Assembly (NCBI GenBank): GCA_965209155.1 | Contig: OZ242383.1 | Coordinates: 928,001 to 992,000 of the forward strand | Direction: 5' to 3' | Length of the DNA: 64,000 nucleotides | Origin: a bacterium | GTDB lineage: Bacteria; SAR324; NAC60-12 | In this document: positions 10,904 to 48,802 of the stretch, one piece after another | Layout of the letters: every line of letters begins with the position of its first letter | Position numbering within the stretch: position 1 is the stretch's first letter | Position numbers and translations under genes: made by a program | The notes under the pieces: generated by a model | The model's database searches: none | The model's input: only the letters and a program-made list of their open reading frames with translations | What the model was told of the DNA's origin: nothing

Positions 10904-13900
10904 TTAAGGTCTTGGGATAGTACGAATTCCGTACTTTTTCATCTTATTGTAGAGGGCTGCGCGGGAGATTCCGAGGGCGGCAGCGGTTTTTACCTTGTGG
11001 CCCTGGGAATTTTTCAGGGCGCTGAGAATCGTCGCTTTTTCATAATCCGCAACGGCCTGATCCAGCGCCATTTTCCTGGGGTTGGTGTTATCTCTGAAAT
11101 TTGAAGTTTCGCTGATTTTGGAATTTATCCGTTCTCCCGGAAAATCAATCTCTCCCTGGGAGACATAGCGATGCAGGGTGTTTTGCAACTCCCGGACATT
11201 GCCCGGCCAATCGTAAACCTGCAGGGCTTCCAGAAATCCCGGTGTGATGGGCTTTCCTTTATGAAGCGATGCTGTGGATTTCAATAAATGCTCGACCAGC
11301 AGGGGGATATCCTCTTTTCTTTCCCGGAGCGGGGGCAGGCGAATGGGAAAGACATGAATCCGGTAATAGAAATCTTCTCGAATTTGCCCCGTCTTTACCC
11401 GATCACTCAGGTCCTGGTTTGAGGCTGCAATGAAGCGGATATCGGGCTTGATGACCTTGGTGGTGCCAACCGGGGTAAAGCCACTGCCCTCCAGGACACG
11501 AAGCAGTTTAACCTGCAGGTTCAGCCCGATATCGGCCAGTTCATCCAGGAACAAAGTGCCTTTGTCGGTCAGGTGCAGGAAACCGCGCTGATCGCTGTCG
11601 GCCCCGGTGAAAGCCCCTTTTTTGTGTCCAAAGAACTCGCTCTCGATCAGGTTTTCGGAGATGGCCCCGAGGTTCACCGGGAAAAACACTTGCTCCTTGC
11701 GGTCACTGGCCTCGTGAATGGCCCGGGAGACCAGTTCTTTCCCGGTTCCCGATTCGCCGTAGAGGATCACGTTCGCATCGGTGGCCGCCGCTTGTAAAAT
11801 CAGCTCATATACCCGTTGCATGGGCTCGCTTTTTCCGATAATGTCGCCAAACCGAAAGCGGTCTTTGCTGCGGGTTCGCAGGCGGACATTTTCTTCACGC
11901 AGGGAGGTTTCGCTCGCTTTCAGCTCGTCCAGCGCCTTTTTGAGGTTTTCGTGAAGCCTGGCGTTTTCCAGGGAAATGGCGATCTGGGAGCTAAGGTGTT
12001 TGATCACCTCGAATCGTCGGGAGGTGAAGGCTCCCTCAACCAGGTTGTTTTCCAGGTAAATGATTCCACTCAGGACGGACTGATGAGTGATCGGTGCGCA
12101 CAGGATGGATTTAGGACGTTCCCGTTTAATATAGTCATCCTCGACAAACCGTTCCTCCCGAGAGGCGTTGTCCAAAACCAGGTGTTCCCGGGTTTGTTTC
12201 ACCCAGGAGATGATCAAGAGGGAGATAGAGCCGACCTTTTCCACAGGCAGGGAAAGCGGTAGAAAACATTCGACCTGCTCGGCGCTCCCGCGGGCAGCAA
12301 TGAGAGACTGACCTTCGGTTTCCAGAATCAGGGTTGCTGTCTGGGCTCCGGCATTTTCCATGAGAATGCGGAGCAGGATCTCCAGCAGCGGTTCCAACTC
12401 AAGGGTACTGGAGATGGTCTCCGAGGCTTTGAGCATCGTTGCCAGGTCCAGGTTGGCCGAAGGAGACACCGCCCCTTCGGCACGATCATCGACAATCAAC
12501 CCGGGATATCGAGACTTCAGGTGCGCGACCTTCCGTTTTGCCCCCCAGGCTTCGTACTGCTCCATTGCTGAGTGCAGGTAAGACCTGGCGGCGGCGCTCT
12601 GCCTCTGGTTGAGCAAGTACCTGGCTGCCAGTTCATCGGCCAGGGCTTCCTCGTGGATAAACTCGCTCTCTCTGGCCAAAGCGATGGCCTGGTCATAGTG
12701 GTGCATAATGGTATCGGGTTCACCCTCCAAAATTCGCATCCGTTCGGCTTCCACCAGGTGATATTTATGCAAATAATTGGGCGGTGCGCAGCGCGCCAGT
12801 TTCTCCAATGTATCTTGATTGTCATCGACCTGGGTGAGGATCTCCTCCTTTTCCCCCTCGCTCCCCTGGCCGTAAACCGCCAGGAGAGCGAGGGATTGGT
12901 AGCAGTTGGCCAGGGGATCACCAAGGGAATCCTTGTAAGTTTTCATCAGGTTGATCATTTCAAAAACCGTCTCCCGGGCTGCTTCATATTCTTCGAACAG
13001 GTATTGCAGCACCAGCTTTTGGTAATTAAAATGGCTCTGTTCAGGATAGACGAACTCTGCACCTGTCACCCTGTGGTATTGATCCATGATGACGCTCGAC
13101 AGGGGCGAAGGTTCCTCCATTAGAATCGTGACCGCCTTCATCTGCATTTCGGCATGGCGAGACCCGAGAATAGAATCGATCTTCTTGAGAGCAAGCTTCA
13201 ACGTCGACAATTCCCCTTTCAGCCAATTCAGCTCCTTCCCGCACATAAACGCTATACGACACCTTGCGACGGCGCTAGCACCGGCATTGATGAAATCTCC
13301 CGTCTCGATTCCCATCTTATGAGCTTCCAGCAAGGGCTCCAATGACGCCGATAGCGGCTCCCGATAGAACCGGGTCGCGCCGTTGAAATACGTGGAAACT
13401 CTACAGTTTATTTCCTTCAGATCAAGCGCTTCCATGAGCTGTATGCCCAGACGAGCGAGTTCATAACCAAATTCAAAATCCTGCGTAAACACGCAATATA
13501 TAAATCCAAGGAGACAATAGAATTCGGGTGAATATTCAGGATAAAAATAATTGAGCAGAAAAGAGATACGTTTTGCAGCGATGGGCTGCCAAAGACCGTC
13601 ATCCAAGGTAGTCCCAGCCACGCCATATGGCATATGGAGCTCATACAGGATGTGAACAAGGACCTCGGCATCCGGTTGGGTGAGCGGCTCAAAGCGCATC
13701 ACGTCTGCGACGCTTTTACCGGCCAGGCTGGATTTGATTTGAACCAGGGTCTGCTGCCACTGGTCGGGAGACAAATGGCTCAGTTGACACCCCAATTTCT
13801 CTAGAATCTCCGCGCCTATTTCCATGGCCTTCTTTAATTCGCCCTGGGTCGTATACGCCTGGATCCGGTATCGATAAACATTGACCAGGTCCAGGTCCTT

Positions 13901-16900
13901 TTGGGCGTTGTCTTTTACGGCACCGGCCAGCTTCTCCATCAACTCGAAGCGTCCGCAGAGCCATGACATCTCCGTGGCGGCTTCATGCAGGGATAAGGCC
14001 AGGGGATATTGCCGTTTCCAGGCGGCAACCCCTAAAAGCTCCAGGCCGATGGTAAAATATTGCAGGGCCTGTTCAAAAGCCGAAGCCGCCCTGGCCTTAA
14101 GACCGGCTTCCAGGTTGAGTTCCGCCAGGTGCGATCGTTCTTTCGCCCTGTTGTTCACCCTCCGGGCCAGGTTGAGATGGTGGACGATGTCAAAGAGCAG
14201 ATTATCCCTTTCCTCCGGAGCGGATTGCTTGAGCAGGGTCTGACCGATTTGAAGATGGACCGACTGTCTCTCCTTTTCGGCAATGAGAGCATAGGCAGCC
14301 TGCTGCACCCGGTCATGCAGGAATTTGTAGCTGCCACCCTCAGTGTTCGCTCCGTCCGGGGGATTATCCGGCTGCGGAGCCTGGGAAAAATCGAGGATCA
14401 ACCCGGTTTCCAGGGCCGGCAACAGGTTCTCATAGAGCTCCTCGCTTCCGGATCCGCTGATCAGTTCCAACGATTCCAGGTCAAAGGTATTGCCGATGCA
14501 GGCCGCCAGGCTTAAGAGTCGCCTGGTTTCAGAGGAAAACCGGTGGAGCCGGTCTATCAGCAAATCCACCACATTCTCGGTCACCACCAGGAATTCGATG
14601 GCAGCCAGCTCCCAGGTCCATCGTTTTTCCTCAGGGGAGTAGCGGATCAGCTCCTTCTCGGAGAGTACGGTCAAGAACTGGCTCACAAAGAAGGGATTGC
14701 CGCCGGTTTTGCGCACCAGGACCTCTGTCAGCGGGTTTGCCTCCTCAGGACGGCAGTGGCAGGTTTGGACGAGCAGTTGTGAGATGTTCTCTGGGTTCAA
14801 GGGTTTTAAGGGAATCGTTTGCACAGGCTGGCCTGATTTTTTGATCACCTCACAACTGATCGTCAGCCGGTGGCCGGCATCCACCTCGTTGTCGCGATAG
14901 GCTCCCAGGAAGAGCAGAGGTTTCCCCTCTTGATCCTGAGCGATCCGTTCCATCAGCTTGAGGGTATCGGCGTCCACCCACTGCAAGTCGTCCAGAAAAA
15001 TAACCAGCGGATGGGTTTTTTCACAGAAAAGGTCGATGAAATCCAGTAAAACGGCAGTGAAGCGGTTCCGGGACTCCAGCGCTCCCATTTCCGGTAGCGG
15101 GGGTTGCGGGCCGATCACCTGTTCCAGTTCCGGAATCACCCGGGTTATCAGTTGTCCGTTGGGTCCCAGCGCTGCCCATATCCTGTTTTTCCAACGCTCC
15201 AATTCGGATTTGTCTTCAACCGGTATCTCCCGGGTGAGTCCCCGCAGCGCCTGGATCAGGGCGCTGTATGAGATATTGTGCCGGAGCTGATCAAATTTGC
15301 CGGAGATGAAGAAGCCATTTTTTTGGGCAACGGACCGGTGAATTTCACCGACCAGTGCGGTTTTACCGACACCGGCGGATCCCGAGACCAACACCATCTC
15401 GGTTGCTCCCTGGCTGACTCGCTCCAGGGCGGCCTCCAGGGCGGCGATTTCATCCTCCCGGCCGTAAAGCCCCGGGGCGATCTGCAGTTCTTTGGGAATG
15501 TCATGGCGGCCCAGGGGAAAATCGGACAGGTTTTCCTGGTTTTCCAGTTGCTCCACACATGCCAGGAGATCGGCTGAAAGGCCCGAGTGGCTCTGGTAGC
15601 GCGCCTCGGCACGCTTTGCCAGCAGTTTCATCACCAGGCGGGAAAGGACTCTGGGTACTTGCGGTTCAATCTCGTCAGGGAGTACAGGCTTCCGGGCAAT
15701 GTGAGCGTGGATAATTTCCATGGCCTCCCGGGATTCGAAAGGCACTCTCCCACTGAAAAGTTCATAAAGGGTAGCCCCCAGGGAATAAAAATCACTGCGA
15801 TAATCGAGGGGGCGGTTCATCCGGCCGGTCTGCTCGGGGGAGATATAGGGCAAGGTTTCCCCGCTTAGCTGGGGACTCAACGTCGTCAAATTTTCCTTAG
15901 GCAACCGGGTGGCCAGGCCGAAACCGCTCAGTTTGACCGTCCCCGATGCCGGATCGACAAAAATATTCAACGGATTGATCATTTTATGAAGAATACCCTG
16001 CCGGTGCACTTCTTTCAGGGTGCTGGTCAATGAAACCGCTATCTTCAGCGAGTCCAGCAGGTCGAGCCGGGCGGCATCCATCAGCTTTCTTAAAGGGAGC
16101 GCATCAGTATTTTCCAGGATCAAAGCCCATCCGTTTTCACACTGCGCCAGTTCCTCTGACCTGAGGACCCCATCGATCTCGAGAGCCTGAGTGATCTCAT
16201 GCTCATGCCGTATTTCTGCCAGCTCCTGGGCGCTCTGCTCGGAAGATGCCGCTCCCTTGATCAGGACCAAAAGCCCGTCGCTTTGCCGCTTGCCGCGCCA
16301 GAGCCGGGTCCGCCCACTTTCAAAAATGACCTCCTCCAGCGAGTAACCCGGGACCTCGGGTTTTTCCCCACTGGAAACGAACTTTGTTTTGTTCACAACT
16401 GGTTCAGGAGGTACAGAAGCCGCTTTATTCGCTTTGGCCGCAGATTTCCGCAGATTTCCGCGGATGTTAGATGCTTTGGGTTTAACAACCTGCTGCTTGC
16501 GGGGGGGCTTTTTTATCATCTCTTCGACGAATTCCTTTTCAAAGGTTTCCTCTTCAGATTGGTGGATAATTTCTATCTTCGTGTCATGGAGTCTGCAAAC
16601 CTCTTCCAACAGTTCAAAGTCAAAGCGAAGCAAACGCTCTTTGCGGAGGACGTAGATCGTTTCTGCTTGATTATTGATGATGGTGAAGAGCAATTGTTTC
16701 CATCCTGGCTTCTTGTCGTTGATGCCACCTCCGATATCCGTGATGATTTGATAGGGGCTTCCTTGAAGCGCAAGATAGGATTCAATCAATTGTTCTTCTC
16801 TGAGAAGATCATCTTGTTGATGAGGGGAATCCACACACGCATACCCTAGATTGATCCTGTTTTTGGGTTGATCGTTCTGGAGGACTTGTGCCAGTTGTTC

Positions 16901-17026
16901 GTCGCTATACATTCGGTGACCTCCCTGGCTCCTGTAGGCAGGCACAAGGATCCCTTTTCGCTCCCATATCCTGATGGTTTCAACGGTTTTCCCAACCTTT
17001 TTTGCAAATGGACCAATACTGTACAT
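10904..17026 (-). CDS. Giant sigma54-dependent activator 1: IS607-TnpA-derived N-terminus, Ser/Thr pseudokinase, AAA (STAND-like), helical region, GAF, sigma54 AAA+, Fis HTH
   Basis: MerR-type HTH plus resolvase-like region (aa ~1-171); YISPEQTGRMN..DYRSDFYSLG; SGSAGVGKT and LDDLQW; GIIYLEN GAF; GESGTGKE, GAFTGA, LFLDE, WPGNVREL; LGISRAALYNK. Confidence 0.9.
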   Translation of the reverse strand: MYSIGPFAKKVGKTVETIRIWERKGILVPAYRSQGGHRMYSDEQLAQVLQNDQPKNRINLGYACVDSPHQQDDLLREEQLIESYLALQGSPYQIITDIGGGINDKKPGWKQLLFTIINNQAETIYVLRKERLLRFDFELLEEVCRLHDTKIEIIHQSEEETFEKEFVEEMIKKPPRKQQVVKPKASNIRGNLRKSAAKANKAASVPPEPVVNKTKFVSSGEKPEVPGYSLEEVIFESGRTRLWRGKRQSDGLLVLIKGAASSEQSAQELAEIRHEHEITQALEIDGVLRSEELAQCENGWALILENTDALPLRKLMDAARLDLLDSLKIAVSLTSTLKEVHRQGILHKMINPLNIFVDPASGTVKLSGFGLATRLPKENLTTLSPQLSGETLPYISPEQTGRMNRPLDYRSDFYSLGATLYELFSGRVPFESREAMEIIHAHIARKPVLPDEIEPQVPRVLSRLVMKLLAKRAEARYQSHSGLSADLLACVEQLENQENLSDFPLGRHDIPKELQIAPGLYGREDEIAALEAALERVSQGATEMVLVSGSAGVGKTALVGEIHRSVAQKNGFFISGKFDQLRHNISYSALIQALRGLTREIPVEDKSELERWKNRIWAALGPNGQLITRVIPELEQVIGPQPPLPEMGALESRNRFTAVLLDFIDLFCEKTHPLVIFLDDLQWVDADTLKLMERIAQDQEGKPLLFLGAYRDNEVDAGHRLTISCEVIKKSGQPVQTIPLKPLNPENISQLLVQTCHCRPEEANPLTEVLVRKTGGNPFFVSQFLTVLSEKELIRYSPEEKRWTWELAAIEFLVVTENVVDLLIDRLHRFSSETRRLLSLAACIGNTFDLESLELISGSGSEELYENLLPALETGLILDFSQAPQPDNPPDGANTEGGSYKFLHDRVQQAAYALIAEKERQSVHLQIGQTLLKQSAPEERDNLLFDIVHHLNLARRVNNRAKERSHLAELNLEAGLKARAASAFEQALQYFTIGLELLGVAAWKRQYPLALSLHEAATEMSWLCGRFELMEKLAGAVKDNAQKDLDLVNVYRYRIQAYTTQGELKKAMEIGAEILEKLGCQLSHLSPDQWQQTLVQIKSSLAGKSVADVMRFEPLTQPDAEVLVHILYELHMPYGVAGTTLDDGLWQPIAAKRISFLLNYFYPEYSPEFYCLLGFIYCVFTQDFEFGYELARLGIQLMEALDLKEINCRVSTYFNGATRFYREPLSASLEPLLEAHKMGIETGDFINAGASAVARCRIAFMCGKELNWLKGELSTLKLALKKIDSILGSRHAEMQMKAVTILMEEPSPLSSVIMDQYHRVTGAEFVYPEQSHFNYQKLVLQYLFEEYEAARETVFEMINLMKTYKDSLGDPLANCYQSLALLAVYGQGSEGEKEEILTQVDDNQDTLEKLARCAPPNYLHKYHLVEAERMRILEGEPDTIMHHYDQAIALARESEFIHEEALADELAARYLLNQRQSAAARSYLHSAMEQYEAWGAKRKVAHLKSRYPGLIVDDRAEGAVSPSANLDLATMLKASETISSTLELEPLLEILLRILMENAGAQTATLILETEGQSLIAARGSAEQVECFLPLSLPVEKVGSISLLIISWVKQTREHLVLDNASREERFVEDDYIKRERPKSILCAPITHQSVLSGIIYLENNLVEGAFTSRRFEVIKHLSSQIAISLENARLHENLKKALDELKASETSLREENVRLRTRSKDRFRFGDIIGKSEPMQRVYELILQAAATDANVILYGESGTGKELVSRAIHEASDRKEQVFFPVNLGAISENLIESEFFGHKKGAFTGADSDQRGFLHLTDKGTLFLDELADIGLNLQVKLLRVLEGSGFTPVGTTKVIKPDIRFIAASNQDLSDRVKTGQIREDFYYRIHVFPIRLPPLRERKEDIPLLVEHLLKSTASLHKGKPITPGFLEALQVYDWPGNVRELQNTLHRYVSQGEIDFPGERINSKISETSNFRDNTNPRKMALDQAVADYEKATILSALKNSQGHKVKTAAALGISRAALYNKMKKYGIRTIPRP

Positions 17027-26370: not shown

Positions 26371-26390
26371 AACAGTTCCTTATTGCTATT

Positions 26391-27055
26391 CTAGGGATTT
26401 TCTCCAGAGGGAACGACATCCGCCAATTGGTCAAGGACCCCATAACGGTCGAAGAGTGCTTCTACCTGATCCCAAGTGGTGGGATCCACCGGGATGCCCT
26501 GGGCCAATCGCTCTTGGCGCGTCTTGGCGGATCTTTCTCCCGGAAAGAAAACCCCGCTCGATCCTGCCATCGGGGGGGTGTTTTGAAAGTATCTCATCAT
26601 CTGTTGGACCTCGGCCCGGATGGTTTCCAGGGGCGCCATGCGGCCCAGGTCGATGATGAGTATCGTGGATCCTGCCCACAGATCCATCTTTCTTGGAGGG
26701 GAAGCGATCTGGCCAAGAAGTGCCCCGAAAAGCGCGACCATGACCAAGAGCGCATATCCCTCGCCAGTTCGGTCGCTCGTGTGGCAACCACCTGACCAAA
26801 GGTAGCATGGCCATCGATCTGGAGGATCCCCCCATGGTTGCCAACGACTTCCGGCTCTGCCTTTGGATCGCAATCTCCGTCCTCAATGTTTTTCAGGTAC
26901 TGGGGGATGCGAATGAACCCATGGGAATCGTATCCCGCAAGATTGGCATTGGCCAGGTGGTCCGCCACGATACCAGCGTGGCTGGCCGAGGCTCCTCCCG
27001 CCTGCATCATCACATCGGTTATCCGGACAATCTGATGTTTCGTTAATATTGGCAT
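26391..27055 (-). pseudogene. Ldh_2 oxidoreductase with the same internal deletion, copy C
   Basis: Identical junction CTGGCGAGGGATATGCG as in copy B. Confidence 0.9.
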
Positions 27056-27077
27056 GAATAGCTCCTAAGAATTCAGT

Positions 27078-27773: not shown

Positions 27774-27925
27774 GTTTCTGTCTCCTGCGTAATGTTTCGC
27801 TTAACCACGTAAATCGTTTATTCCCTTGTCATAGGGTTTCGCTTCGCTCCACCGGAATGCCTGGGCCGCATTCGGAGACCACCCATGCTGTTATGACATG
27901 CTCCGTTGGAGCAAATACGGTCCGG

Positions 27926-28951
27926 TTAGTTAGGCAGCAAGGCCACGGAACGGACCTCGCCAAACTCCTTTTGCAGCTTTTGCCACGAATCACCCCCATC
28001 TTCGCTCACGTACACATAGCCGAGGATGCTGACCGCGACGATTACGTTGGGTCGCTCCTTGTGAGTGGCGATCCCATAGATATTTGAGTTGGGCTCTTCC
28101 GGCAGAGGCACTGGTTCCCAGCTTTTGCCACCATCCTGAGTGCGCTGCACGGCACCGATTGTACCGGGAATACCGTCGCCGTTGCCGACGAACATGACAT
28201 CGGGGTTATCCGCTTTGATGACCATGCCCCGGCAGTAGGACACGCGATCCGCTTCATGGAACTTGGGGAAATAGTGGTAATCCCAGCTTTCGCCTTCGTC
28301 GTGGCTGGTGGCGAGCCCAAAGGGAGAGGTACAGTAGACTGCGGAACGGGCGCCAGTTTTCAGAGCCATACTGTGAATGTCACCGTGGAAGGGATTAGGA
28401 CCCAGGTCGGGCAGGTGTATCCAGTTGTCTCCGCCATCCAGGCTCTTGTAAACCCCGTCAACCTCCATGCTAGCCCAGATGGTGCGGTTGTCCCTGGGAT
28501 CTACGATCATGCAGGTGGTCCGCGGCGGTGAGGGAGGTTCAGTGACGGGGCTCTTCATGTTTACGCCCATATGAAGCTTGCTCCAAGACCTCCCCCCATC
28601 CCTGGAGCGGAATCCCTCGGGCCGCGTGCCCACGAATAGGGTGTCCGGGTCCGTGGGGTCCACAGTCACCGACCAGACCTCAAGGTTCGATGTGGGGGCA
28701 TCCAGGTTTTCCCAGGTCGCGCCGCCGTCTTCGCTGCGGAAAACGCCCACGTCGGAACCGGCCAATACCCGACGGGGGTTGTCCGGATACACACACAACG
28801 CCCTGACGTTGCCCTCCGTCGGTAGTGTGTTTTTCAGCTTGGGCGTGTGGTAGATTTCAGGGCGAATGTTGGTCCAGGATTCACCGCCGTCGGCACTCAC
28901 GTTCAGCCCTTGGCCGATGGTGCCAATGAGGATTGTGTAATCTTTTGCCAT
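27926..28951 (-). CDS. BNR beta-propeller protein, copy C
   Basis: Asp-boxes; paralogue of 2909-3907. Confidence 0.85.
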   Translation of the reverse strand: MAKDYTILIGTIGQGLNVSADGGESWTNIRPEIYHTPKLKNTLPTEGNVRALCVYPDNPRRVLAGSDVGVFRSEDGGATWENLDAPTSNLEVWSVTVDPTDPDTLFVGTRPEGFRSRDGGRSWSKLHMGVNMKSPVTEPPSPPRTTCMIVDPRDNRTIWASMEVDGVYKSLDGGDNWIHLPDLGPNPFHGDIHSMALKTGARSAVYCTSPFGLATSHDEGESWDYHYFPKFHEADRVSYCRGMVIKADNPDVMFVGNGDGIPGTIGAVQRTQDGGKSWEPVPLPEEPNSNIYGIATHKERPNVIVAVSILGYVYVSEDGGDSWQKLQKEFGEVRSVALLPN

Positions 28952-32886: not shown

Positions 32887-33642
32887 TCACCTCCCTGCGG
32901 CTATTCCGCCGTCAATGACCAAGTCGCTGCCGGTGACAAAAGAGGACTCGTCCGAAGCCAGGTAAAGAGCGCCATAGGCCACGTCTTCCGGCTGGCCCGT
33001 GCGACCCAGGGGAATCCTGTTGAGCATTTTCTCTTGATATCCCTCCTCCGCCATCAAGTGGGCGTTCATAGTTGTTTTGATGCTGGCCGGAATTATGGAG
33101 TTGACGCGGATCCCTTCCCTGGCGTATTGAATAGCGGTGGACTTGGTCAAAAGCCGCACCGCAGCCTTGGACATGGTGTAGGTGCACGATGCCTCCATGC
33201 TGCCTTCCAGCCCAGCAATCGAAGAGATGTTGATCATGGAGCCGCCGCCCGCTTTCCGCATCTCGGGTATGGCGTGTTTTGTCCCCAGAAACGCGCCCTT
33301 GGCGTTTATTTCCAAATCCCGGTCCCACTGCTCGCTGGTGATCTCCTCCACCAGACCGGTCCGGTAAGTACCGGCGTTGTTCACCAGAACGTCCAGTTTC
33401 CCGAAGCGGGCGACGGTGGACGCCACGGCTTGCTGCCACTCGGCCTCGCTGGTGACATCCAACCGGACGAAGAGGCACGCGCCACCGGTTTCATTAATTT
33501 GTGTCTCGGTCTGACGCCCTTCTTCTTCCAGCACGTCTCCAATGACCACTTTGGCCCCTTCCCTGGCAAACAGCTTGGCCATCGCTGCGCCAATACCCCT
33601 GGCTCCCCCGCTGATAAAAGCGACCTTGCCTTTCAGTTTCAT
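32887..33642 (-). CDS. SDR family oxidoreductase, copy D
   Basis: SGGARGIG, NNAG, YTMSK, IDGG. Confidence 0.9.
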   Translation of the reverse strand: MKLKGKVAFISGGARGIGAAMAKLFAREGAKVVIGDVLEEEGRQTETQINETGGACLFVRLDVTSEAEWQQAVASTVARFGKLDVLVNNAGTYRTGLVEEITSEQWDRDLEINAKGAFLGTKHAIPEMRKAGGGSMINISSIAGLEGSMEASCTYTMSKAAVRLLTKSTAIQYAREGIRVNSIIPASIKTTMNAHLMAEEGYQEKMLNRIPLGRTGQPEDVAYGALYLASDESSFVTGSDLVIDGGIAAGR

Positions 33643-33654
33643 GGTTTGCCTCTT

Positions 33655-34353
33655 CTATTGATGATTGATGGTTGTCCGTCTCCCCGCCAACCACTGGATG
33701 CCCCGCCCCACTACCGTTCGAAAACCGGGGTTTGAGTAAGCCTGGTTATCGTCCCCGCCCTGGTAGCAGAAGACCCTCGCCTTACCGAAGGTACGAGTCC
33801 ACGCGATCGTCTTCATACTCTGGGGATGATCGGTGGTGAGCAGGATGTGGCTATCCTCGTCCGCGTCGTCTATGTTATAGGTCTCGTCGACGATGTCCCA
33901 CGGCTTTAGTGATGCAGTGATGGGATGTGCGGTGTCCGCGACGTCGATGCGCACGGTCTGGTCGAAGGCGCACGGAATTGCGCCTCGCTGACGCATGCCG
34001 CTAAGCTCTCTCCAGAGCGGCCAGTCGGGAAAGGCTACCAGCGCGTGATGCAGCAGAAAAATCCCCTGGCCCCCATCACCAAGGCCCTCCAGCATCTCCT
34101 TTATGGCTCCGCTCTGCTTATCGGTTCCTGGCTCTGATTTGCCATCTTTTTCAGCGGGCGTGCTTTGGTGCCAGTTGAAGAACACGAGTACGTCATAGGT
34201 CCCTGGACCGCGTGCCGAGTCGAAAACGAAGTCCCACAGGTTCTGAGGGTAGGCATCGATTTCGGGAAGGGAGCGAAGCATGGACTGGAAGCCGACCACG
34301 TCATACTCGTGCTCGCCGGTAATCACGGCTGTTTTTATCTTTCCATTCTCCAT
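33655..34353 (-). CDS. ThuA-like protein, copy D
   Basis: Paralogue of 2024-2704 and 27078-27773. Confidence 0.85.
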   Translation of the reverse strand: MENGKIKTAVITGEHEYDVVGFQSMLRSLPEIDAYPQNLWDFVFDSARGPGTYDVLVFFNWHQSTPAEKDGKSEPGTDKQSGAIKEMLEGLGDGGQGIFLLHHALVAFPDWPLWRELSGMRQRGAIPCAFDQTVRIDVADTAHPITASLKPWDIVDETYNIDDADEDSHILLTTDHPQSMKTIAWTRTFGKARVFCYQGGDDNQAYSNPGFRTVVGRGIQWLAGRRTTINHQ

Positions 34354-34391
34354 GTTCCTGTCTCCTGTATTAGATTAAAGATTACAATGAT

Positions 34392-34531
34392 GTGCCATCC
34401 CGGACTTGATCCAGGACCGGGATGATCCGGGATCCAGGTACCTGGTAGCTTTGCATATCGGTTCCACGTCAGCTGCTTCCGCGTACGGCTGGATTCCTGG
34501 TCAAGCCGCTCAGAGGACCGCCGGAATGACA
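34392..34531. repeat. Nested REP-like element related to 9968-10074
   Basis: CCGGACTTGATCCAGGACCGGGATGATCC is a near reverse complement of the core at ~10024-10058. Confidence 0.7.
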
Positions 34532-34561
34532 AAAATAGAAAATCACACCCAACTAGTGCTC

Positions 34562-34677
34562 TGTCAACTTTAATTTGACGGTAGGGCCGGGTGACGTCCC
34601 GGCCTAAGAAACGCCACGCTCGCATTGGCCGGGGCGTCACCCGGCCCTACCATTAACTCGGCATTTTAAAGTTGACA
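34562..34677. repeat. MITE-like element: 12-bp terminal inverted repeats enclosing a GTAG-REP doublet
   Basis: TGTCAACTTTAA...TTAAAGTTGACA around GTAGGGCCGGGTGACG...CGTCACCCGGCCCTAC. Confidence 0.75.
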
Positions 34678-34679
34678 AT

Positions 34680-35705
34680 CTAGTTGGGCAGCAAGGCCAC
34701 GGAACGGATCTCGCCAAACTCCTTTTGCAGCTTTTGCCACGAATCACCCCCATCTTCGCTCAGGTACACATAGCCGAAGATGCTGGCCGCGACGATTACG
34801 TTGGGCCGCTCCCTGTGAGTGCTTATCCCATAAATAATGGAGTTGGGCTCTACCGGCAGGGACACCGGTTGCCAACTTTTCCCGGCATCCTGGGTGCGCT
34901 GTATGGCACCGGTGACACCGGGAATAACGTCGCCGTTGCCGACAAACATGACATCGGGGTTATCCGCTTTGATGACCATGCCGCGGCAGTAGGACACGTG
35001 ATCCGCTTCATGGAACTTGGGGAAATAGTGGTAATCCCAGCTTTCACCTTCGTCGTGGCTGGTAGCGATCCCAAAGGGAGAGGTACAGTAGACTGCGGAA
35101 CGGGCGCCAGTCTTCAGAGCCATACTGTGAATATCGCCCTGGAAGGGGTCAGGACCCAGGTCGGGCAGGTGGTTCCAGCTGTCGCCGCCATCCAGGCTCT
35201 TGTAAACCCCGTCAACCTCCATGCCAGCCCAGATGGTGTTGTTGTCCTTGGGATCTACGATCATGCAGGTGGTCCGCGGCGGCGAGGGAGGAAGTGGTTC
35301 AGAGATGGGGTAATTCATGTTTACGCCCATATGAAGCTTGCTCCAAGTCCGCCCCCCATCCCTGGAGCGGAATCCCTCGGGTCGCGTGCCCACGAATAGG
35401 GTGTCCGGGTCCGTGGGATCTACAGTCACCGACCAGATTTCAAGATCCGCTGTGGGGGCATCCAGGTTTTCCCAGGTCGCGCCGCCGTCTTCGCTGCGGA
35501 AAACGCCCACTTGGGATGAGGGGACTGATTGACAATCAGCACCGGCCAATACACGCCGGGGGTTGTCCGGATACACGCACAACGCCCTGACGTTGGACTC
35601 ATGCCAGATAGGTTGATTGATTTTGGTCCAGGATTCACCCCCGTCGGCACTCACGTTCAGCCCTTGGCCGGCGCCGCCGATAAGGATTGTGTAATCTTTT
35701 GCCAT
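34680..35705 (-). CDS. BNR beta-propeller protein, copy D
   Basis: Asp-boxes; paralogue of copies A and C. Confidence 0.85.
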   Translation of the reverse strand: MAKDYTILIGGAGQGLNVSADGGESWTKINQPIWHESNVRALCVYPDNPRRVLAGADCQSVPSSQVGVFRSEDGGATWENLDAPTADLEIWSVTVDPTDPDTLFVGTRPEGFRSRDGGRTWSKLHMGVNMNYPISEPLPPSPPRTTCMIVDPKDNNTIWAGMEVDGVYKSLDGGDSWNHLPDLGPDPFQGDIHSMALKTGARSAVYCTSPFGIATSHDEGESWDYHYFPKFHEADHVSYCRGMVIKADNPDVMFVGNGDVIPGVTGAIQRTQDAGKSWQPVSLPVEPNSIIYGISTHRERPNVIVAASIFGYVYLSEDGGDSWQKLQKEFGEIRSVALLPN

Positions 35706-40138: not shown

Positions 40139-41950
40139 CTAATGCCCCATTGCTTCCTTCAGCTCACTATCAATCCAGAGGCGGGCTAAGAATGACTGGG
40201 TTTCACCCATTCCTATTCTTATTTCGGCGTTATAACCTTTGACCCACGGCTGCCAAGCTTGGAACTGTGGGGTTTCGACCCCATATACGAATGAGTGCTT
40301 GGCTGTCGTGTACATAATTGCCTCTTTGCCCAGCCTATTCTGCTCCTCAAGGGTGGTAACGGCGTTTGCTTTGTCCCACAGGGCGTCATATTCGGGGTCT
40401 TTCAGGGACCAGTGCTGGCCGGAATCTGAATGAAACGACCACAGATGATCGGGGAGCCTATACCTGATGGCCACCGACGCGGATGTCATTCTGTAGGTAT
40501 CCTGATCTCCTTTTGTGGCCCCCACAATTGTCGGCCAATCCATACCAGCGTCTATCTCGATCACCACGCCAATCTGACGCCAGTATCCCGCGACCAGTTC
40601 TGCATAGCTCGGATCGAACCGTTCATAGTAGGCCATGCGGGTCTTGAATCTAATGCCGTCCGCGCCGCGGGTAAGCCCAGCCGCATCAAGCAACGCTTCT
40701 GCACCTTCCGGGTCATAGGTATAGCCTTTCTTCACCTCTTCGGGCCACTCCTCAAATGGCGTGCCAAACGGCATATCATTGGCTATATATCCCTGCGGAG
40801 TCGCATTGCCATAACCCTTATAGAAGGTATTCACAATGGTCTCGCGGTCCACTGCCATATTCATTGCCTGGCGCACCCGGATGTCATTCCAGGGCGGTCT
40901 GTGCACACCGACGAAAACGAAACTCTGGTCGGACCGATACGTAATAGGCCCCAGCTCAATTTCGGGGTCGGTCCGCTGGAGGCTCTCTATCTGGTCGATC
41001 GACCTTAATTGAGAGTCGCCGACAGTCCCCAGCATATCAATCGTACCCGTGCGCAGTGCCGCCAGACGGGTTGCCTCATCTGGCATGAACAAGGTTATTA
41101 CCTTGTCAACATAGGGCAAGCGGTTCTCCGGGTATTTTTCGTCGTAGGCCCAGTAGTCAGGATTTTTGGTCCAGGTCCTAGTGCTGTCTTCGACCAGCTC
41201 CGTCAGCTCATAGGGTCCGGTGCCGACCGTGTTCCGCCAATCCTTATAGTCGCCGTGTTGCTCGATGACCTCCGGAGGGTAGATCACAGCAACCCAGTGA
41301 ACCAGGAGATTTAGCAGGGCACGAAGGTCTGGCTCCTTCAGCTTAAAAACAACCGTATATTTGTCGGTGGCCGTTATCGACTCGAAATTGTCTGGCTTCA
41401 ACCCACCTACCACTGGGCTAGGGCCGGCTTCACTGAACTTGCCCAGCCCCAATAAACGATGCCAGTTATATTCGACATCCCTGGCCGTCAATGCTCTCCC
41501 GTTCACCGGTGCCTTGTCGTGCCAGTTAACGCCCTTTCGGATGTTGAAGATAATGGTTGTATCGTCGGGCGTTTCCCAGCTTTCCGCCAGTGCCCCTTTC
41601 CGGGAAGGTGGAGGTGGGTCTGCAAAGTACCGCCAGTCCCATACGTCCCTATCTATTCCCCAGTTCCCGATGCCGAGCATCTCATTAACCAAACCGATGT
41701 TATGGGTCGCCCAGCCAGAAATGTACCAGACATCAGAATGCGCAGCCCAACTGACCCGGCCATAGGTTATTGTCCCGCCATACTCAGGTGCACTCACCAT
41801 TTTACCAGTGGTCGGATCTTTGACCATCTTTTTCTCAGCCGCAATGGCCAAACCGACCCCGAGGGCGGCCACCATCAGGGTGAGGGACAGCAGGATTGCA
41901 CTGAAGGTTGATTTGCTGTTTAGATTAAACATTGCGATTTTCGATTTCAT
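40139..41950 (-). CDS. oppA: Family 5 substrate-binding protein, cluster 2
   Basis: Start MKSKI after GGAG; PEYGG, LAESWE, GTGPY, DIRVRQA. Confidence 0.9.
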   Translation of the reverse strand: MKSKIAMFNLNSKSTFSAILLSLTLMVAALGVGLAIAAEKKMVKDPTTGKMVSAPEYGGTITYGRVSWAAHSDVWYISGWATHNIGLVNEMLGIGNWGIDRDVWDWRYFADPPPPSRKGALAESWETPDDTTIIFNIRKGVNWHDKAPVNGRALTARDVEYNWHRLLGLGKFSEAGPSPVVGGLKPDNFESITATDKYTVVFKLKEPDLRALLNLLVHWVAVIYPPEVIEQHGDYKDWRNTVGTGPYELTELVEDSTRTWTKNPDYWAYDEKYPENRLPYVDKVITLFMPDEATRLAALRTGTIDMLGTVGDSQLRSIDQIESLQRTDPEIELGPITYRSDQSFVFVGVHRPPWNDIRVRQAMNMAVDRETIVNTFYKGYGNATPQGYIANDMPFGTPFEEWPEEVKKGYTYDPEGAEALLDAAGLTRGADGIRFKTRMAYYERFDPSYAELVAGYWRQIGVVIEIDAGMDWPTIVGATKGDQDTYRMTSASVAIRYRLPDHLWSFHSDSGQHWSLKDPEYDALWDKANAVTTLEEQNRLGKEAIMYTTAKHSFVYGVETPQFQAWQPWVKGYNAEIRIGMGETQSFLARLWIDSELKEAMGH

Positions 41951-42051
41951 AAGATTCTCCTTAAATGAATGAATAAAGGTTGAGTTGATCTCATACCACT
42001 TAAAGGGCATTGCCCCTTGCCCCGCGTTTTTCGGCAGGTTGAGTTTTATGC

Positions 42052-42254
42052 TTCAAGCAGTGTGCCAAATTTGAGGATATTCAGTTAACTTATTGTAATT
42101 ATTAACTAATTTTGACAAGTGGAGGTTTTTGTATGTGAAGCAGATGTTCAATTATGTTAATTTAAGCCGGGAGGAAATAGTAGTTAACCCACTGATATTA
42201 AAGATTTATAGATCAAAATCCAGAACTTGAAACAAATGTTTAATATTTTGAACA
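42052..42254 (-). promoter_or_regulatory. Second sigma54 promoter/IHF/enhancer module
   Basis: TTGGCACACTGCTTGAA at 42052-42068; TGTT-N10-AACA at 42237-42254, degenerate site at 42145; IHF-like site at 42185-42197; all offset 31710 bp from module 1. Confidence 0.75.
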
Positions 42255-42270: not shown

Positions 42271-45200
42271 TTAAGTTCCTATAATGATCCTAATTCCGTA
42301 CTTTTTCATTTTGTTGAAGAGGGTGGTCCGGGAGATTCCCAGGGCAGCAGCGGTTTTTATCTTGTGACCCTGGGAATTTTTCAGGGCAATGAGAATCGTC
42401 GCTTTTTCACTATCCGCAACGGCTTGCGCCATTTTCCCGTGGTTGATCTTATCTCCAAAAATTGAAGTTTCGCTGATTTTAGAATTTATCCGTTTCCCCA
42501 GAAAATCGACCTCTCCCAGAGTGACATAGCGATTCAGGGTGTTTTGCAACTCCCGGACATTGCCCGGCCAATCGTAGGCTTGCAGGGCTTGCAGAAATCC
42601 TGGTGTGATGGGCTTTCCTTGTTGAAGCGGTGCCATGGATTTCAAAAAATGCTCGACCAGCAGGGGGATATCCTCTTTTCTTTCCCGGAGCGGGGGCAGG
42701 CGAATGGGAAGGACATGAATCCGGTAATAGAAATCTTCTCGAATTTGCCCCGTCTTTACCCGGTGACTCAGGTCCTGGTTTGAAGCCGCGATGAACCGGA
42801 TATCGGGCTTGATGACCTCGGTGGTGCCAACCGGGGTAAAGCCATTGCCCTCCAGGACACGAAGCAGTTTAACCTGCAGGTTCAGCCCGATATCGGCCAG
42901 TTCATCCAAGAACAAAGTCCCTTTGTCGGTCAGGTGCAGGAAACCGCGCTGATCGCTGTCGGCCCCGGTGAAAGCGCCTTTTTTGTGTCCAAAGAACTCG
43001 CTCTCGATCAGGTTTTCGGAGATGGCCCCGAGGTTCACCGGGAAAAACACTTGCTCCTTGCGGTCACTGGCCTCGTGAATGGCGCGGGAGACCAGTTCTT
43101 TCCCGGTTCCCGATTCGCCGTAGAGGATCACGTTCGCATCGGTGGTCGCCGCTTGTAAAATCAGCTCGTATACCCGTTGCATGGGCTCGCTTTTTCCGAT
43201 AATGTCGCCAAACCGAAAGCGGTCTTTGGTGCGGGCTCGCAGGTGGACATTCTCCTCGCGTGGGGAGGTTTCGCTCGCTTTCAGCTCGTCCAGCGCCTTT
43301 TTGAGGTTTTCGTGAAGCCTGGCGTTTTCCAGGGAAATGGCAATCTGGGAGCTAAGGTGCTTGATCACCTCGAGTCGCCGGGGGGGGGAAGGCCCCCTCA
43401 ACCAGGTTATTTTCCAGGTAAATGATGCCGGTCAAAGATGACTGATGAGTGATCGGTGCGCACAGGATCGATTTGGGACGCTCCCTCCGGATATAGTCAT
43501 CTTCGGCAAACCGTTCTTCCCGAGAGGCGTTGTCCAAAACCAGGTGTTCCCGGGTTTGTTTCACCCAGGAAATGACCGAGAGGGAGAGGGAGAAAGCCTT
43601 TTCCACAGGCAGGGAAAGCGGTAGAAAACATTCGACCTGCTCGGCGCTCCCGCGGGCAGCAATGAGAGACTGACCTTCGGTTTCCAGTATCAGGGCTGCT
43701 GTCTGGGCTCCGGCATTTTCCATGAGAATGCGGAGCAGGATCTCCAGCAGTGGTTCCAACTCAAGGGTACTGGAGATGGTCTCCGAGGCTTTGAGAATCG
43801 TCCCTAGGTCCAGGTTTGTAGAAGGAGACGTCGCTTCAGCACGATCATCGGCAATCAACCCGGGATATCGAGACTTCAGATGCGCGACCTTCCGTTTTGC
43901 TCCCCAGGCCTCGTACCTCTCCAATGCTGAGCGCAGGTAAGACCTGGCGTCGTTGTTTTGCCCCTGGTTGAGCAAGTACCTGGCTGCCAGTTCATTGGCC
44001 AGAGCTTCCTCGTGGATAAATTCGTTCTCTCTGGCCAAAGCGATGGCCTGGTCATAATGGGACAGAATCGCGTCGCTTTGACCCTCCAAAACCCTCATCC
44101 GTTCGGCTTCCACCAGGTGGTATTTATGTAAATAATTGGGTGGTGCGCAGCGCGCTAGTTTCTCCAATGTATCCTGATTGTCATGGACCTGGGTGAGGAT
44201 CTCCTCCTTTTCCCCCTCGCTCCCCTGGTCGTAAAGCGCGAGGAGAGCGAGGGACAGGTAGCAGTTGGCCAGGGGATCAACAAGGGCATCCTTGTAGGTT
44301 TTCATCAGGTTGATCATTTCAAAAACCGTCTCCCGCGCTGCTTCGTATTCTCCAAACAGGGTTTGCAGCACCAGCTTTTGGTAATTAAAACTGCTCTGTT
44401 CATGAGGTTGGTACTCTGTACCCCTCCCCCTATCGTATTGATCCATGATGCCGGTTGACAGGGTCGAAGGTTCCTCCATTAGAATCATGACCGCCTTCGT
44501 CAGCATTTCGGTCTTGGAAAACCCGATAATATAATCGATCTTCTTGAGAGCAACCTTCAACGTCGACAATTCCCCTTTCAGCCAATTCAGCTCTTTCCCG
44601 CACATAAACGCTAACTGACACCTTGCGAGGGCGTTAGCACCGGCATTGTAGAAATCTCCCGTCTCGATTCCCATCTTATGAGCTTCCAGCAAGGGATCCA
44701 ATGACGCCGATAGCGGCTCCCTGTAGATCCGAATCCCGACGTTGAAACCTCCGGAAACTCTACAGTTTATTTCCTTCAGATCAAGCGCTTCCATGAGCTG
44801 TATGCCCAGGCGACCGAGTTCATAACCAAATTCAAAATCCTGAATATACACGCAATAGATCATTCCAAGGAGACAATAGAATTCGGGTGATTGTTTCGGA
44901 TGAAAATGACTGAGCAGCAACGAGATGCGTTTTGAAGCGATGGGCTGCCAAAGACCGTCATCCAAAGTAACCCCAGCCTCGCTATATGGCAAATGGAGCT
45001 CATATAGAATATGGACTAGGACCTTGGAAAGCGGTTGGGTGAGCGGCTCAAACTGCATCACTTCTTCAGCGCTTTTACCGGCCAGGCTGGATTTGATTTG
45101 AACGAGGGTCTGCTGCCACTGGCCGGGAGACAGACGGCTCAGTTGACACCCCAATTTCTCCAGAATTTCCTCGCCCGTTTTCAGGGCCTTCTTTAATTCA

Positions 45201-48200
45201 CCCTGGTTGGTGTACGCCTTGATCAGGCATTGATAAACATTGGCCAGGTCCAGGTCCTCCCGGACGTTTTCTTTTACGCCACCCGCCAGCTTCTCCATCA
45301 GGTCAAACTGGCCACAGAGCCATGACATCTCCGTGGCTTCCTCATGCAGGGATAAGGCCAGGGGGTATTGTCGTTTCCAGGCGGTGGCTCCTGAAAGCTC
45401 CAGACCTATGGTAAAGTATTCCAGGGCCTGTTCAAAAGCCGAAGCCGCCCTGGCCTGACGACCGGCTTCCAGGTTGAGTTCTGCCAGGTGCGATCGTTCT
45501 TTCCATTTATCCTTCACCCTCCGGGCCAGGTTAAGATGATGGACGATGTCAAAAAGCAGAGCATCATTTTTTCCGAGAGCGTATTGTTTGAGCAGGGTCT
45601 GACCGATTTGAAGATGGACTGACTGTTTCTCCTTTTGTGCAATGAGGGCATAGGCAGCCTGCTGCACCCGGTCATGCAGGAATTTATAGCTATCGCTCTC
45701 CGTGCTCGCTCCGTCGGTCGGATTATCCAGCTGCGGGACCCGGGAAAAACCGAGGATTAACCCGTTTGCAAGGGCCGGCAACAGGTTCTCATCGATCTCC
45801 CCGCTTCCTTCTCCGCTGATCAGCTCCAAGGATTCCAGGTCAAAAGTATTGCCGATGCAGGCCGCCAGGCTTAAGAGTCGCCTGGTTTCAGCGGAAAACC
45901 GGTGGAGCCGGTCAATCAGCAACGCCACCACATTATCGGTCACCGCCAGGAACTCGATGGCAGCCAGGTCCCAAATCCATCGTTTTTCCTCAGGGGAGTA
46001 GCGGATCAGGTCCTTCTCGGAGAGTACGGTTAAAAACTGGCCCACAAAGAAGGGATTGCCGCCGGTTTTGCGCACCAGGACCTCTGCCAGCGGGTTTGCC
46101 TCCTCAGGACGGCAGTGGCAGGTATGGACGAGCAGTTGTGAGATGTTCTCCGGATTTAAGGGCTTTAAGGGGATCGTTTGGACAGGCAGGCCTGTTCTTT
46201 TGATCACCTCACAACTGATCGTCAACCGGTGGCCGATATCCACCTTGTTGTCGCGATAGGCCCCCAGGAAAAGCAGAGGTTTCCTCTCCGGATCCTGAGC
46301 AATGCGTTCCACCAGCTTGAGGGTATCGGCGTCCACCCACTGCAAGTCGTCCAGAAAAATAACCAGGGGATGGGTTTTTTCACAGAAAACAGAGATGAAA
46401 TCCAGTAAAACGGCAGTGAAGCGGTTCCGGGACTCCAGCGCTCCCATTTCCGGCAGCGGGGGTTGCGGGCCGATCATCTGTTCCAGTTCCGGAATCACCC
46501 GGGTTATCAGTTGTCCGTTGGGTCCCAGGGCAGCCCGTATCCTGCTTTTCCAACGCTCCATTCCGGATTTCTTTTCGACTGATATCTCCCGGGTGAGTCC
46601 CCGCAGCGCCTGGATCAGGGCGCTGTAGGGGATATTGTGCCGGAGCTGGTCAAACTTGCCGGAGATGAAGAAGCCGTTTTTTTGGGCAACGGACCGGTGA
46701 ATTTCACCGACCAGAGCGGTTTTGCCGACACCAGCGCTTCCCGAGATCAGCACTATCTCGGTCGCTCCCTGGCTGACTCGCTCCAGGGCGGCCTCCAGAG
46801 CGGTGATTTCTTCCTCCCGGCCGTAAAGCCCCGGGGCGATCTGCAATTCTTTGGGAACGTCCTGGCGTCCCAGGGAAAAGTCGGACACGTTTCCATTTTT
46901 TTCCAGTTGCTCCAGACATGCCAGGAGGTCGGCTGAAAGCCCTGAGTGACTCTGGTAGCGGGCTTCGGCGCGCTTTGCCATCAGTTTCATCACCAAGCGG
47001 GAAAGGACTCTGGGTACTTGCGGTTCAATCTCGTCAAGGGGCAGGGGCTGCCGGGCAATGTGAGCGTGGATGATTTCCATGGCCTCCCGGGAGTGGAAAG
47101 GCACTCTCCCGCTGAAAAGTTCATAAAGGGTGGCGCCCAGGGAATAAAAATCACTGCGATAATCGAGCACCCGGTTTATCCGGCCGGTCTGCTCGGGGGA
47201 GATATAGGGCAGGGTTTCCCCGCTTAGCCGGGGACTCAACGTCGTCAAATTTTCCTTAGGCAACCGGGTGGTCAGGCCGAATCCGGTCAGTTTGACCGTT
47301 CCCGATGCCGGATCGACAAAAATATTGAACGGATTGATCATTTTATGCAGGAGGCCCTGCCGGTGTACTTCTTTCAGGGTGCTAGTCAGTGAAACCGCTA
47401 CCTTCAGCGAGTCCAGCAGGTCGAGCCGGGCTGAATCCATCAACTTTCTTAAAGGAAGCGCATCAGTGTTTTCCAGGATCAAGACCGATCCGTTTTCATA
47501 TTGCACCACTTCCTCTGCCCTGAGGACCTCATCAATCTCCAGAGCCTGAGTGATCTCATACTCATGCCGCATTTCCGCCAACTCCTGCGCGCTCTGATCA
47601 GAGGAAGCCGCTCCCTTGATCAGGACCAAAAACCCGTCCCTTTGCCGCTTGCCGCGCCAAAGCCAGGTCCGCCCACTTTCAAAAATGACCTCCTCCAGCG
47701 AATAACCCGGAATCTCCGGTTTTTTTTGATCAGAAATCGTCTGCTCTTTTATTGGCCTGGGTGGCGTTTCCTTTCCCGGTCCGGTAGAGATTTCTTCACT
47801 GGACCTTTCAGGCATTTTGAAACTTTTCAGCAGATCCCCCATAAAACCCTGATTCTTTTCGATTTCGTGAATTTTTCCCAGCATTCTCCGGGCGGTATAG
47901 TAATTTAATCCGATTTTTTCTGATAATTGTTGAGCCGTCGTCTCGCCATTGCATGCCGCCACATAATAAATCCCCCAAAACCAGTAACGCAGTGGAGTCC
48001 GCGTCCGGTGCATCAGAGTTCCTGCGTTGAGCGAAGTCTGGTGTTTACAGTTTCTGCATTGCAGTATTTGACGTTTTTTCAGGGCATCGTATCGGTGACT
48101 ACCACAGAGGGAGCACACATAACCGGCTGGCCAACGCAGGTGGAAAAGGTGATTGCGACAGACTTCATCGTTCGAAAACAGCTTTTGGATCTCGTGAAAG

Positions 48201-48241
48201 GCATGAGCTTGAGTTGTTTCATCCACTTGGCGCTCCCACAT
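42271..48241 (-). CDS. Giant sigma54-dependent activator 2 with IS1595-derived N-terminus; +1 frameshift in a C9 tract separates the sensor part (43352-48241) from the activator part (42271-43401)
   Basis: Colinear paralogue of 10904-17026; N-terminal LRWPAGYVCSLCG..CRNCKHQTSLNAGT zinc ribbon; G9 at 43380-43388 where G8 restores the frame. Confidence 0.85.
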
Positions 48242-48325
48242 CTAAAATGGTTTAATGAACACTCAGGGATGGGCTTGAGCTAATTCATCCACTTGGCGTT
48301 CCCACATCTAAGATGGTTTAATGAA
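48199..48325. repeat. Diverged tandem duplication (period 66 bp) of the activator-2 start
   Basis: TTCATCCACTTGGCG(C/T)TCCCACATCTAA(A/G)ATGGTTTAATGAA twice; upstream copy encodes MWERQVDELAQAHP*. Confidence 0.9.
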
Positions 48326-48802
48326 TATTTTTGATTGTAAATTTTATGTTTGTATAACCTTTCAGATGGTTGAACGCAAGAAAAATTGTACTTCCATCAC
48401 AGAAATTTCATCACTTTTAAACTTGTCGCTATTTTTTAAAAAGAATAAAGCAGTTACTGAGCGTTCGCAAATTTTGAGTCAATCCTTTTTTTAGTTAAAA
48501 TTTTTACATGACCAATTTATACGACCTTAATCCAGTGTTTTTTCCAATAGCGATTGGGATGGGATTTATTTCTAAGCGGCCTTCCGCATTGCTCCCTTTG
48601 TCCTTTACACGCCCGTTTACCGATGCTATCATCACCCTTAACGTATTCCCTGTGGAGAAAAGTCCAAAGGAAGCCTGCAGGGGTTATCCCGGAGACGGCA
48701 AACGTCAATGCTGAGTAAGTTTTCAGTTGCAAGTACCCAAGAACGTAAAAAAGATGAATCTAGCGGTGGACAGCGACTGTTTCTCCACGAGTATGGAAGA
48801 TT

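Follow-up and report, generated by a model that had tools for sequence, protein, structure and literature searches.

The question raised by this locus is why part of an IS1595 transposase stands at the N-terminus of a large transcriptional activator. The window, a stretch of 64,000 nucleotides from a bacterium of the SAR324 lineage, carries on its minus strand a reading frame that is open for 1629 amino acids (1624 in the database gene call) and leads from an IS1595-like module into a kinase-STAND-TPR-GAF body (Table 1). The translation of 47861-48241, MWERQVD...GKIHEI, contains the cysteine pairs CSLC at residue 43 and CRNC at residue 62, together with the helix-turn-helix (HTH) stretches quoted in the original prediction, which had proposed an IS1595 zinc ribbon and HTH fused without the catalytic DDE domain. 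At the level of sequence this fusion to an activator is confirmed. Zn_ribbon_IS1595 (PF12760) scores 40.7 bits against a cut-off of 25.4, the Pfam scan of the window protein gave no match to DDE_Tnp_IS1595 (PF12762), and the alignment with intact IS1595 transposases ends immediately before the first catalytic E-x-D-D motif, with the loss falling at the domain boundary. The NCBIfam model transpos_IS1595 (NF033547) aligns residues 80-127 with its positions 2-50 of 215, under its cut-off. A further conserved helix, residues 129-141, also belongs to the module and lies beyond 47861-48241. Translation probably starts at the GTG at 48226, which has a GGGAG ribosome site, rather than at the ATG at 48241. 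That no convincing terminal inverted repeat (TIR) could be seen upstream had likewise been noted, and the best full-TIR matrix score is -1.6, compared with a minimum of 12.5 for real ends. The domain DDE_Tnp_IS1595 is diagnostic for the family, according to the part of PMC8101967 available; with neither this domain nor a TIR, the element in the window is not, as judged from its sequence, an IS1595 insertion sequence.

Table 1. Coordinates of the fused activator, its upstream region and related features in the window
Positions	Strand	Feature	Evidence or remark
48351..48379	-	Putative sigma70 promoter of the activator gene, TTGCGT-N17-TATACA	Conserved in 14 aligned type-A promoter units
48245..48374	-	Candidate operator TT(A/C)AACCAT(C/T)T, three copies: 48364-48374 (promoter spacer), 48311-48321, 48245-48255	
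48199..48325	-	Site, ribosome-binding sequence and start duplicated in tandem (66 bp)	61 nt at 89% identity
48038..48172	-	IS1595-type zinc ribbon, residues 24-68, CxxC...CxxC	PF12760, E 2.3e-10 in whole protein
47861..47992	-	Helix-turn-helix, residues 84-127; transposase-conserved W is R	Three helices in AlphaFold model
47819..47857	-	Tail helix GF-x-x-x-L-x-x-SF, confined to fused modules	L and S in 9/9 fusions
47708..47818	-	Disordered linker	pLDDT <50 for residues 143-171; dN/dS 0.64
46895..47707	-	Ser/Thr pseudokinase, HKMIN and GFG replacing HKDIN and DFG	PF00069 (residues 197-434), E 4.7e-22; PknB fold
46268..46828	-	STAND NTPase, Walker A GSAGVGKT and Walker B IFLDD intact	PF13191 (AAA_16, residues 472-658), E 3.4e-42
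43388..45544	-	TPR region and GAF domain	PF25503 (below cut-off); PF01590 (residues 1494-1611), E 1.1e-8
43380..43388	-	Run of 9 C, +1 frameshift ahead of sigma54 domain	Other copies in frame
42271..43401	-	GAF end, sigma54 activator ATPase (GAFTGA) and Fis-type HTH, in shifted frame	PF00158, E 1e-61; PF02954, E 9.3e-11
42053..42067	-	Sigma54-type -24/-12 site TGGCAC-N5-TTGA, presumed target promoter	Consensus match only
40139..42010	-	ABC substrate-binding protein, first gene of presumed target operon	PF00496, E 1.7e-71
10904..17026	-	Intact paralogue with IS607 MerR-HTH head and resolvase remnant	10-bp-period repeats AATATCT(G/C/T) at 17089-17242

The AlphaFold model of the module shows a zinc ribbon and a three-helix HTH with a pLDDT of 90. 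Its best fold matches are generic HTH proteins with middling Z scores of 5.4 or less, and among solved structures there was no sequence match under E 0.3 and no Foldseek match at E 0.001, which does not show that the fold is new. A search of the Atlas with the module returned PF12760 clusters only. A 450-residue model built from 10 sequences misfolded the zinc ribbon and is uninformative on domain contacts.

The body to which the module is joined is one that we take to be HstK/PknK-like. In the window copy an AAA_16 domain with Walker A and B motifs is followed by TPRs, the arrangement that identifies a STAND NTPase. The kinase lacks both catalytic aspartates and retains its fold, and the Walker motifs and GAFTGA are intact. 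Across the source genome and its sister species, 29 of the 31 copies have HKM(I/V)N at the catalytic loop (the others do not match the pattern) and 29 have an intact xGFG, with one further truncated GFGP. A relative in another genome (L044 in G004) has also lost both aspartates and has no N-terminal head, suggesting that loss of kinase activity preceded gain of the head. The sigma54 AAA+ domain with GAFTGA and the Fis-type HTH are in frame in 21 of the 26 copies in the source genome; in the window copy they are found only in the shifted frame. All 27 other script-matched copies are in frame where the window copy has its run of nine C, and contigs from runs X1, X5 and X20, possibly from paralogues, have one base missing at 43380-43387. 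The shift may be an assembly error in the homopolymer or a real mutation or slippage site. If it is real, the product would retain the head and might still act as a repressor at sister promoters. Window-copy DNA, or that of close relatives, occurs in sponge metagenomes, as seen in these contigs. Two metatranscriptome runs contained 0.06 of the words tested. An X20 contig over 47893-48094 was rejected as evidence of expression of the window copy, with 14 differences in 202 nucleotides marking it as a paralogue.

A query with the kinase gave 28 matches in the source genome, of which the 26 with a full kinase start were analysed and two fragments excluded. All 26 carry a head: ten have the IS1595 module, 14 an integrase arm-binding domain and two an IS607 MerR-type HTH. 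Pfam scans of 12 of the 31 N-termini in the two species confirmed PF12760, PF13356 and PF13411. Twenty-one of the 26 are unbroken. The sister species has five copies, three of them intact with an IS1595 head and two (L060, L061) with an IS607 head out of frame. The parallel that had been drawn with an IS607 case is borne out by the IS607-headed paralogue in the window, the body of which is 84% identical; its resolvase remnant has the motif YACVD where an intact TnpA (in G008) has YARVS, and its promoter and first codons are exactly duplicated (106 nt, period 116). The view that only the end-binding module was kept thus holds for the window copy, but was incomplete in that the domestication extends through the family and across lineages and includes a third class of module. 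The zinc ribbons fall into four divergent subtypes, with all four cysteines present in 13 of 13 aligned copies, and the linkers behind the arm and IS607 heads are rich in lysine and arginine.

Heads have also moved between bodies. The body trees are not sorted by head type: the kinase tree requires 13 changes of head against a mean of 12.8 after shuffling, and the STAND tree 10 against 12.1, a value as low being reached in 29 of 200 shuffles, while the TPR tree is distorted by a broken copy, L012. These are trees of the kind expected when homologous recombination within the common body shuffles heads among copies. One sister-species locus (L061:3350-5770) may show a head replacement in progress: a body of the same kind carries an IS607-type head, and some 1.2 kb upstream of that head are a type-A promoter and one half of a zinc ribbon.

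The next gene on the same strand, listed for 25 copies, appears by reading to encode a substrate-binding protein in 22 cases, a permease in one and an inserted transposase in two; for both cases in the window Pfam confirmed the substrate-binding identity. The substrate-binding genes at 8048-9907 and 40139-42010 begin with short tandem duplications (repeated MKSLFGEIIMKK-type peptides), like the activator starts. Downstream of the target operons, at 866-3979, 21569-28951 and 32887-35705, are repeated, partly broken copies of catabolic genes that by reading are dehydrogenase-like, ThuA-like and propeller-like. A sigma54 -24/-12 site, identified by consensus match only, lies downstream of 23 of the 25 copies that have a C-terminus. 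The type of the C-terminal HTH matches this site in 12 of 12 copies for type a, 5 of 5 for type b (one less exactly) and 6 of 7 for type c. Since IS1595 heads occur with all three HTH types (4, 2 and 3 copies for a, b and c), the head does not set the target.

Searches with the module found 43 and 56 close proteins, none with PF12762, and a profile search of 1.84 billion representatives added distant fusions (P0073, P0074 and P0075), labelled Deltaproteobacteria in their sources. Two of these, P0073 and P0075, have the same body at 34-38% identity (measured for P0075 and for P0223, a cluster-mate of P0073). The third, P0074, has a TPR-GAF-sigma54 body from which kinase and STAND are absent, as does a second such case, P0239, from a source with the same label; the module's persistence there means that it is not a partner of the kinase. 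A survey of 88 genomes from the phylum found long fused frames in the source genome, the sister species and G075, a member of another family; in this set, which includes many incomplete genomes, the arm fusion occurred only in the source genome and the IS607-derived head only in the source genome and sister species.

In a tree of 71 module sequences, nine fused modules and a partial 120-residue protein are separated from 61 transposases by a branch with support of 99/89. The tree was built from 116 columns in which long branches meet, and one row labelled as a transposase (P0242) has no listed DDE match. The tryptophan of the recognition helix, present in 59 of the 61 transposases, is arginine or glutamine in 9 of 9 fusions, and the tail helix, conserved in the fusions, could be aligned in none of the 61 transposases. 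With the caveat of the long branches, this suggests one old domestication of the module as the simplest reading. Four separate captures, first suggested by saturated dS among the zinc-ribbon subtypes, are less likely because the fused modules stand on one side of that branch and have their derived residues in common. A recent donor was also sought and none was close: the seven intact IS1595 copies and one fragment resident in the source genome are 25-26% identical to the module, and the best intact transposases 54%. The nearest IS1595 relatives presumably belong to the ISSod11 group. Two of the resident intact elements lie tail to tail (G000:C1:2183783-2186213). The partial protein in the tree (P0076), annotated as a transposase, groups with the fused modules and is probably a truncated fusion. 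Another protein, P0078, of 689 residues, has four tandem IS1595 zinc-ribbon/HTH units without a DDE domain and is possibly a separate domestication.

All three head classes are under purifying selection at least as strong as that on the kinase. Pooled over seven type-A copies, dN/dS is 0.20 for the zinc ribbon (bootstrap 0.09-0.46), 0.11 for the HTH (residues 73-128), 0.13 for the tail helix, 0.64 for the linker and 0.31 for the kinase. Values are 0.29 and 0.31 for the arm domains (7 and 6 copies) and 0.10 for the MerR head (2 copies). These are Nei-Gojobori estimates from pairs that are not independent, bootstrapped over codons. Translation of the module is supported indirectly, because purifying selection was measured on it, and the IS1595 module is, on these substitution patterns, very probably a translated and selected domain. 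It would seem most improbable, therefore, that the head is a neutral passenger, a tolerated leader peptide left when the 5' end of an IS supplied a promoter and a start codon. Any 5' capture brings the donor N-terminus with it, and the out-of-frame IS607 heads of L060 and L061 are what such a leader might look like. This reading is largely refuted by selection, with dN/dS of 0.08-0.20 on the module and 0.61-0.64 on the adjacent linker, by the invariance of the four cysteines and by retention of the module on bodies that are only 34-38% identical.

The putative promoter of the window copy was too weak to be listed by a sigma70 consensus scan. The upstream copy within the tandem duplication behind it runs into a stop after nine codons. 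Tandem duplication of promoter or start segments, seen in 21 of the 31 copies and in all three head classes, multiplies the sites. Each class has its own repeats: the 10-bp-period repeats of the IS607 class, an 11-bp-spaced TTGCTATC in one arm subtype and, in the IS1595 class, pairs resembling TT(A/T)AA(T/C)C(A/C), of which the first sits on the putative -35 box and the other 29 or 53 nucleotides further along. Within 250 nucleotides of the start, the IS1595-class motif is found in 10 of 13 copies with a zinc ribbon and 1 of 15 others, the arm motif in 12 of 13 and 0 of 15, and the IS607 motif in 2 of 2 and 1 of 26, for motifs chosen by eye in copies that are not independent. Such co-variation of head and promoter is also expected from linkage alone because the promoter adjoins the head.

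The promoters were also compared without a chosen motif. In six promoter regions that cannot be aligned (type A represented by L014), exact shared words did not reach significance (209 and 107 of 1000 shuffles), nor did two-copy words with one mismatch at k=7 and 8 (127 and 32 of 300). At k=9, CATTAAATC occurs twice, with one mismatch, in three of the six regions, one of them from another family, a result equalled in 0 of 300 shuffles. Inverted repeats were extracted for 56 of 90 IS1595-like frames and a matrix was built from 34 ends of the closest elements; the inner half of one such end, L097, is CTTAAATCAGC. No fusion carries a full TIR by this matrix. The inner half of the matrix picks out the repeat sites in promoter types B and D and in G075, with scores reached in 1 of 300 shuffles for type D, 0 of 300 for G075 and a modest 22-39 of 300 for type B; the window copy scores weakly (83 of 300), and such sites are absent in type C and L093 (120 and 125 of 300). 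None of the 15 controls came below 79 of 300. Combined by Fisher's method over six promoter types, the window copy included, p is 0.0016, compared with 0.30 for three controls. There is thus moderate support, from sequence comparison, for a resemblance between the IS1595-type promoter repeats and the inner half of IS1595 ends; of the comparison with TIRs that had been proposed for the upstream region, the full repeat failed to appear and inner-TIR-like repeats seem to survive at the promoter. Genome-wide there are 16 site pairs, six at family promoters, one at an orphan copy of the promoter and nine without shared context. The orphan, a type-B promoter with both repeats and no activator gene behind it, lies directly before the window (G000:C1:927661).

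We consider, with a probability of about one half, that the head is part of a captured promoter-operator-repressor cassette by which the activator gene regulates itself. The module would have been captured once, long ago, together with an IS1595 element's left-end promoter and its sites for transposase binding, and would now be a domesticated, sequence-specific DNA-binding N-terminal domain of sigma54 enhancer-binding proteins. These activators would switch on ABC importer operons, with target choice left to the C-terminal Fis-type HTH, and we infer that the head binds the direct repeats derived from the inner TIR over its own sigma70 promoter and represses the activator gene. Its specificity may have changed relative to the transposases, given the change of tryptophan to arginine in the recognition helix. 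The integrase-arm and IS607 cassettes, each with promoter, sites and DNA-binding domain, would be later captures serving the same purpose. As head and site are common to the copies of a class, repression would act in trans throughout that class. The common property of the three unrelated head folds is DNA binding, and all 26 copies carry one, which favours autorepression. An IS607-family TnpA is described as binding helically phased 9-bp direct repeats at its left end (PMC6188088, available in part), and the P4-type integrase IntS of KplE1 represses its own promoter (PMC2951348, likewise). In the same partial account of IntS, single arm-site mutations gave no derepression, which counts against the analogy, and repression by the arm domain alone was not found there. 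Also against autorepression, two copies, L004 and L010, keep the module despite an insertion of about 1.6 kb between sites and start, and the window copy is itself frameshifted and has a weak inner-TIR score. At L004:1844-3439 and in the matching part of L010 this insertion stands between the start and the type-B promoter with its sites; it carries an IS110 transposase in L004 and is a 97% identical stretch in L010. A broader form of the proposal is offered more tentatively: whole cassettes from three unrelated classes of mobile element may serve as plug-in feedback heads, with class-wide repression in trans capping activator dosage across the 26 copies, and with head cassette, sensor body, and C-terminal HTH with its target promoter recombining freely.

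The same candidate sites would be compatible with a different use, in which the head binds during translation of the 2000-residue protein, holds the activator at its own locus and so limits cross-talk between near-identical paralogues. Cross-talk is a real problem where 25 loci have only three main C-terminal HTH/promoter types, and each presumed target follows directly on its activator; in bacteria, the coupling of transcription to translation lets transposases act in cis, according to the part of PMC6182136 available. The sites overlap the gene's own promoter, however, which is the position of a repressor, the target is about 6 kb away and a site common to the copies of one class confers no locus identity, so that tethering appears unlikely. 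Nor does it seem likely that the head provides a second DNA contact that aids hexamer loading at target enhancers or changes the genes activated. The interchangeability of three unrelated DNA-binding heads and the basic linkers of two of them would suit such a role, but head type is independent of target promoter type, and the class motifs were found only upstream of the activator genes, the 8 kb that follow the kinase start having none. The nine genome-wide site pairs without shared context offer it no set of targets, the rest being family promoters and the orphan.

Binding of protein rather than DNA is a still weaker candidate. The head might dimerise, keep the activator off or sort paralogues into same-class oligomers, and the new conserved tail helix could be read in this way; small N-terminal differences do alter control and hetero-oligomerisation of the paralogous activators RedR1 and RedR2 (PMC10084136, in the portion available). 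Three unrelated folds would then need the same role, and it is the HTH that is the most constrained part. We find it improbable that the head is a sensor or decoy for mobile elements, comparable to the integrated domains of NLRs, in which binding of IS or att DNA or of an incoming recombinase triggers the STAND domain. The STAND-TPR architecture, the derivation of every head from a mobile-element enzyme and the divergence of the zinc-ribbon subtypes are all suggestive of this. Against it, the outputs are nutrient importers, the resident intact IS1595 copies resemble the module so little, selection is purifying and the module is kept where STAND is absent.

For autorepression a direct test is feasible, with domains of 130 residues and promoters of 130 bp, and a DNA target would follow for an IS1595 end-binding domain, for which no solved homologue was found by sequence. 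If autorepression is true, a family of regulators can grow to dozens of copies without runaway expression. Whatever its function, one activator slot has been filled from three unrelated recombinases, selection on the result is measurable and donor-like sites apparently came along.

No description of such a fusion was found in a search of the literature that covered mainly openly readable articles, excluding supplements. Eukaryotes offer well-known examples of regulators domesticated from the DNA-binding domains of transposases; to our knowledge there are few bacterial cases. Compared with IS1595-family transposases (PF12760 with PF12762), the fused module has the same zinc ribbon and HTH, at up to 54% identity to intact enzymes, and promoter repeats resembling the inner half of the element's TIRs, but lacks the DDE domain and a full TIR, has arginine for tryptophan and an extra tail helix, and is joined to an activator. 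The kinase-STAND(AAA_16)-TPR-GAF(-PAS)-sigma54 activators in other genera of the family have the same body and are about 35-42% identical over the kinase. They differ in starting at the kinase, without any comparable head, and in 6 of the 7 examined both catalytic aspartates are present; the family of the window copy has a mobile-element head, a dead kinase and 26 copies. In its sequence the fusion resembles a sigma54 activator to which a DNA-binding domain from a transposon has been added. With the autorepressing recombinases IntS (PMC2951348) and IS607-family TnpA (PMC6188088), as described in the available parts of these articles, it would have in common a DNA-binding domain and repeated candidate sites at or beside its own promoter; here the catalytic domain is gone, the cassette sits on a host activator and binding is predicted. 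On the part of its description available, TldR, derived from TnpB (PMC10705468), is the nearest bacterial precedent for such exaptation, a mobile-element protein that lost catalysis and was kept for gene regulation. ZBED6 (PMC2780926) and FHY3/FAR1 (PMC13306707), also seen through partial accounts, are likewise transposon-derived factors kept for regulation without catalysis. Unlike all of these, the module described here forms an accessory head of a bacterial sigma54 activator, in a slot where three unrelated donors are interchangeable.
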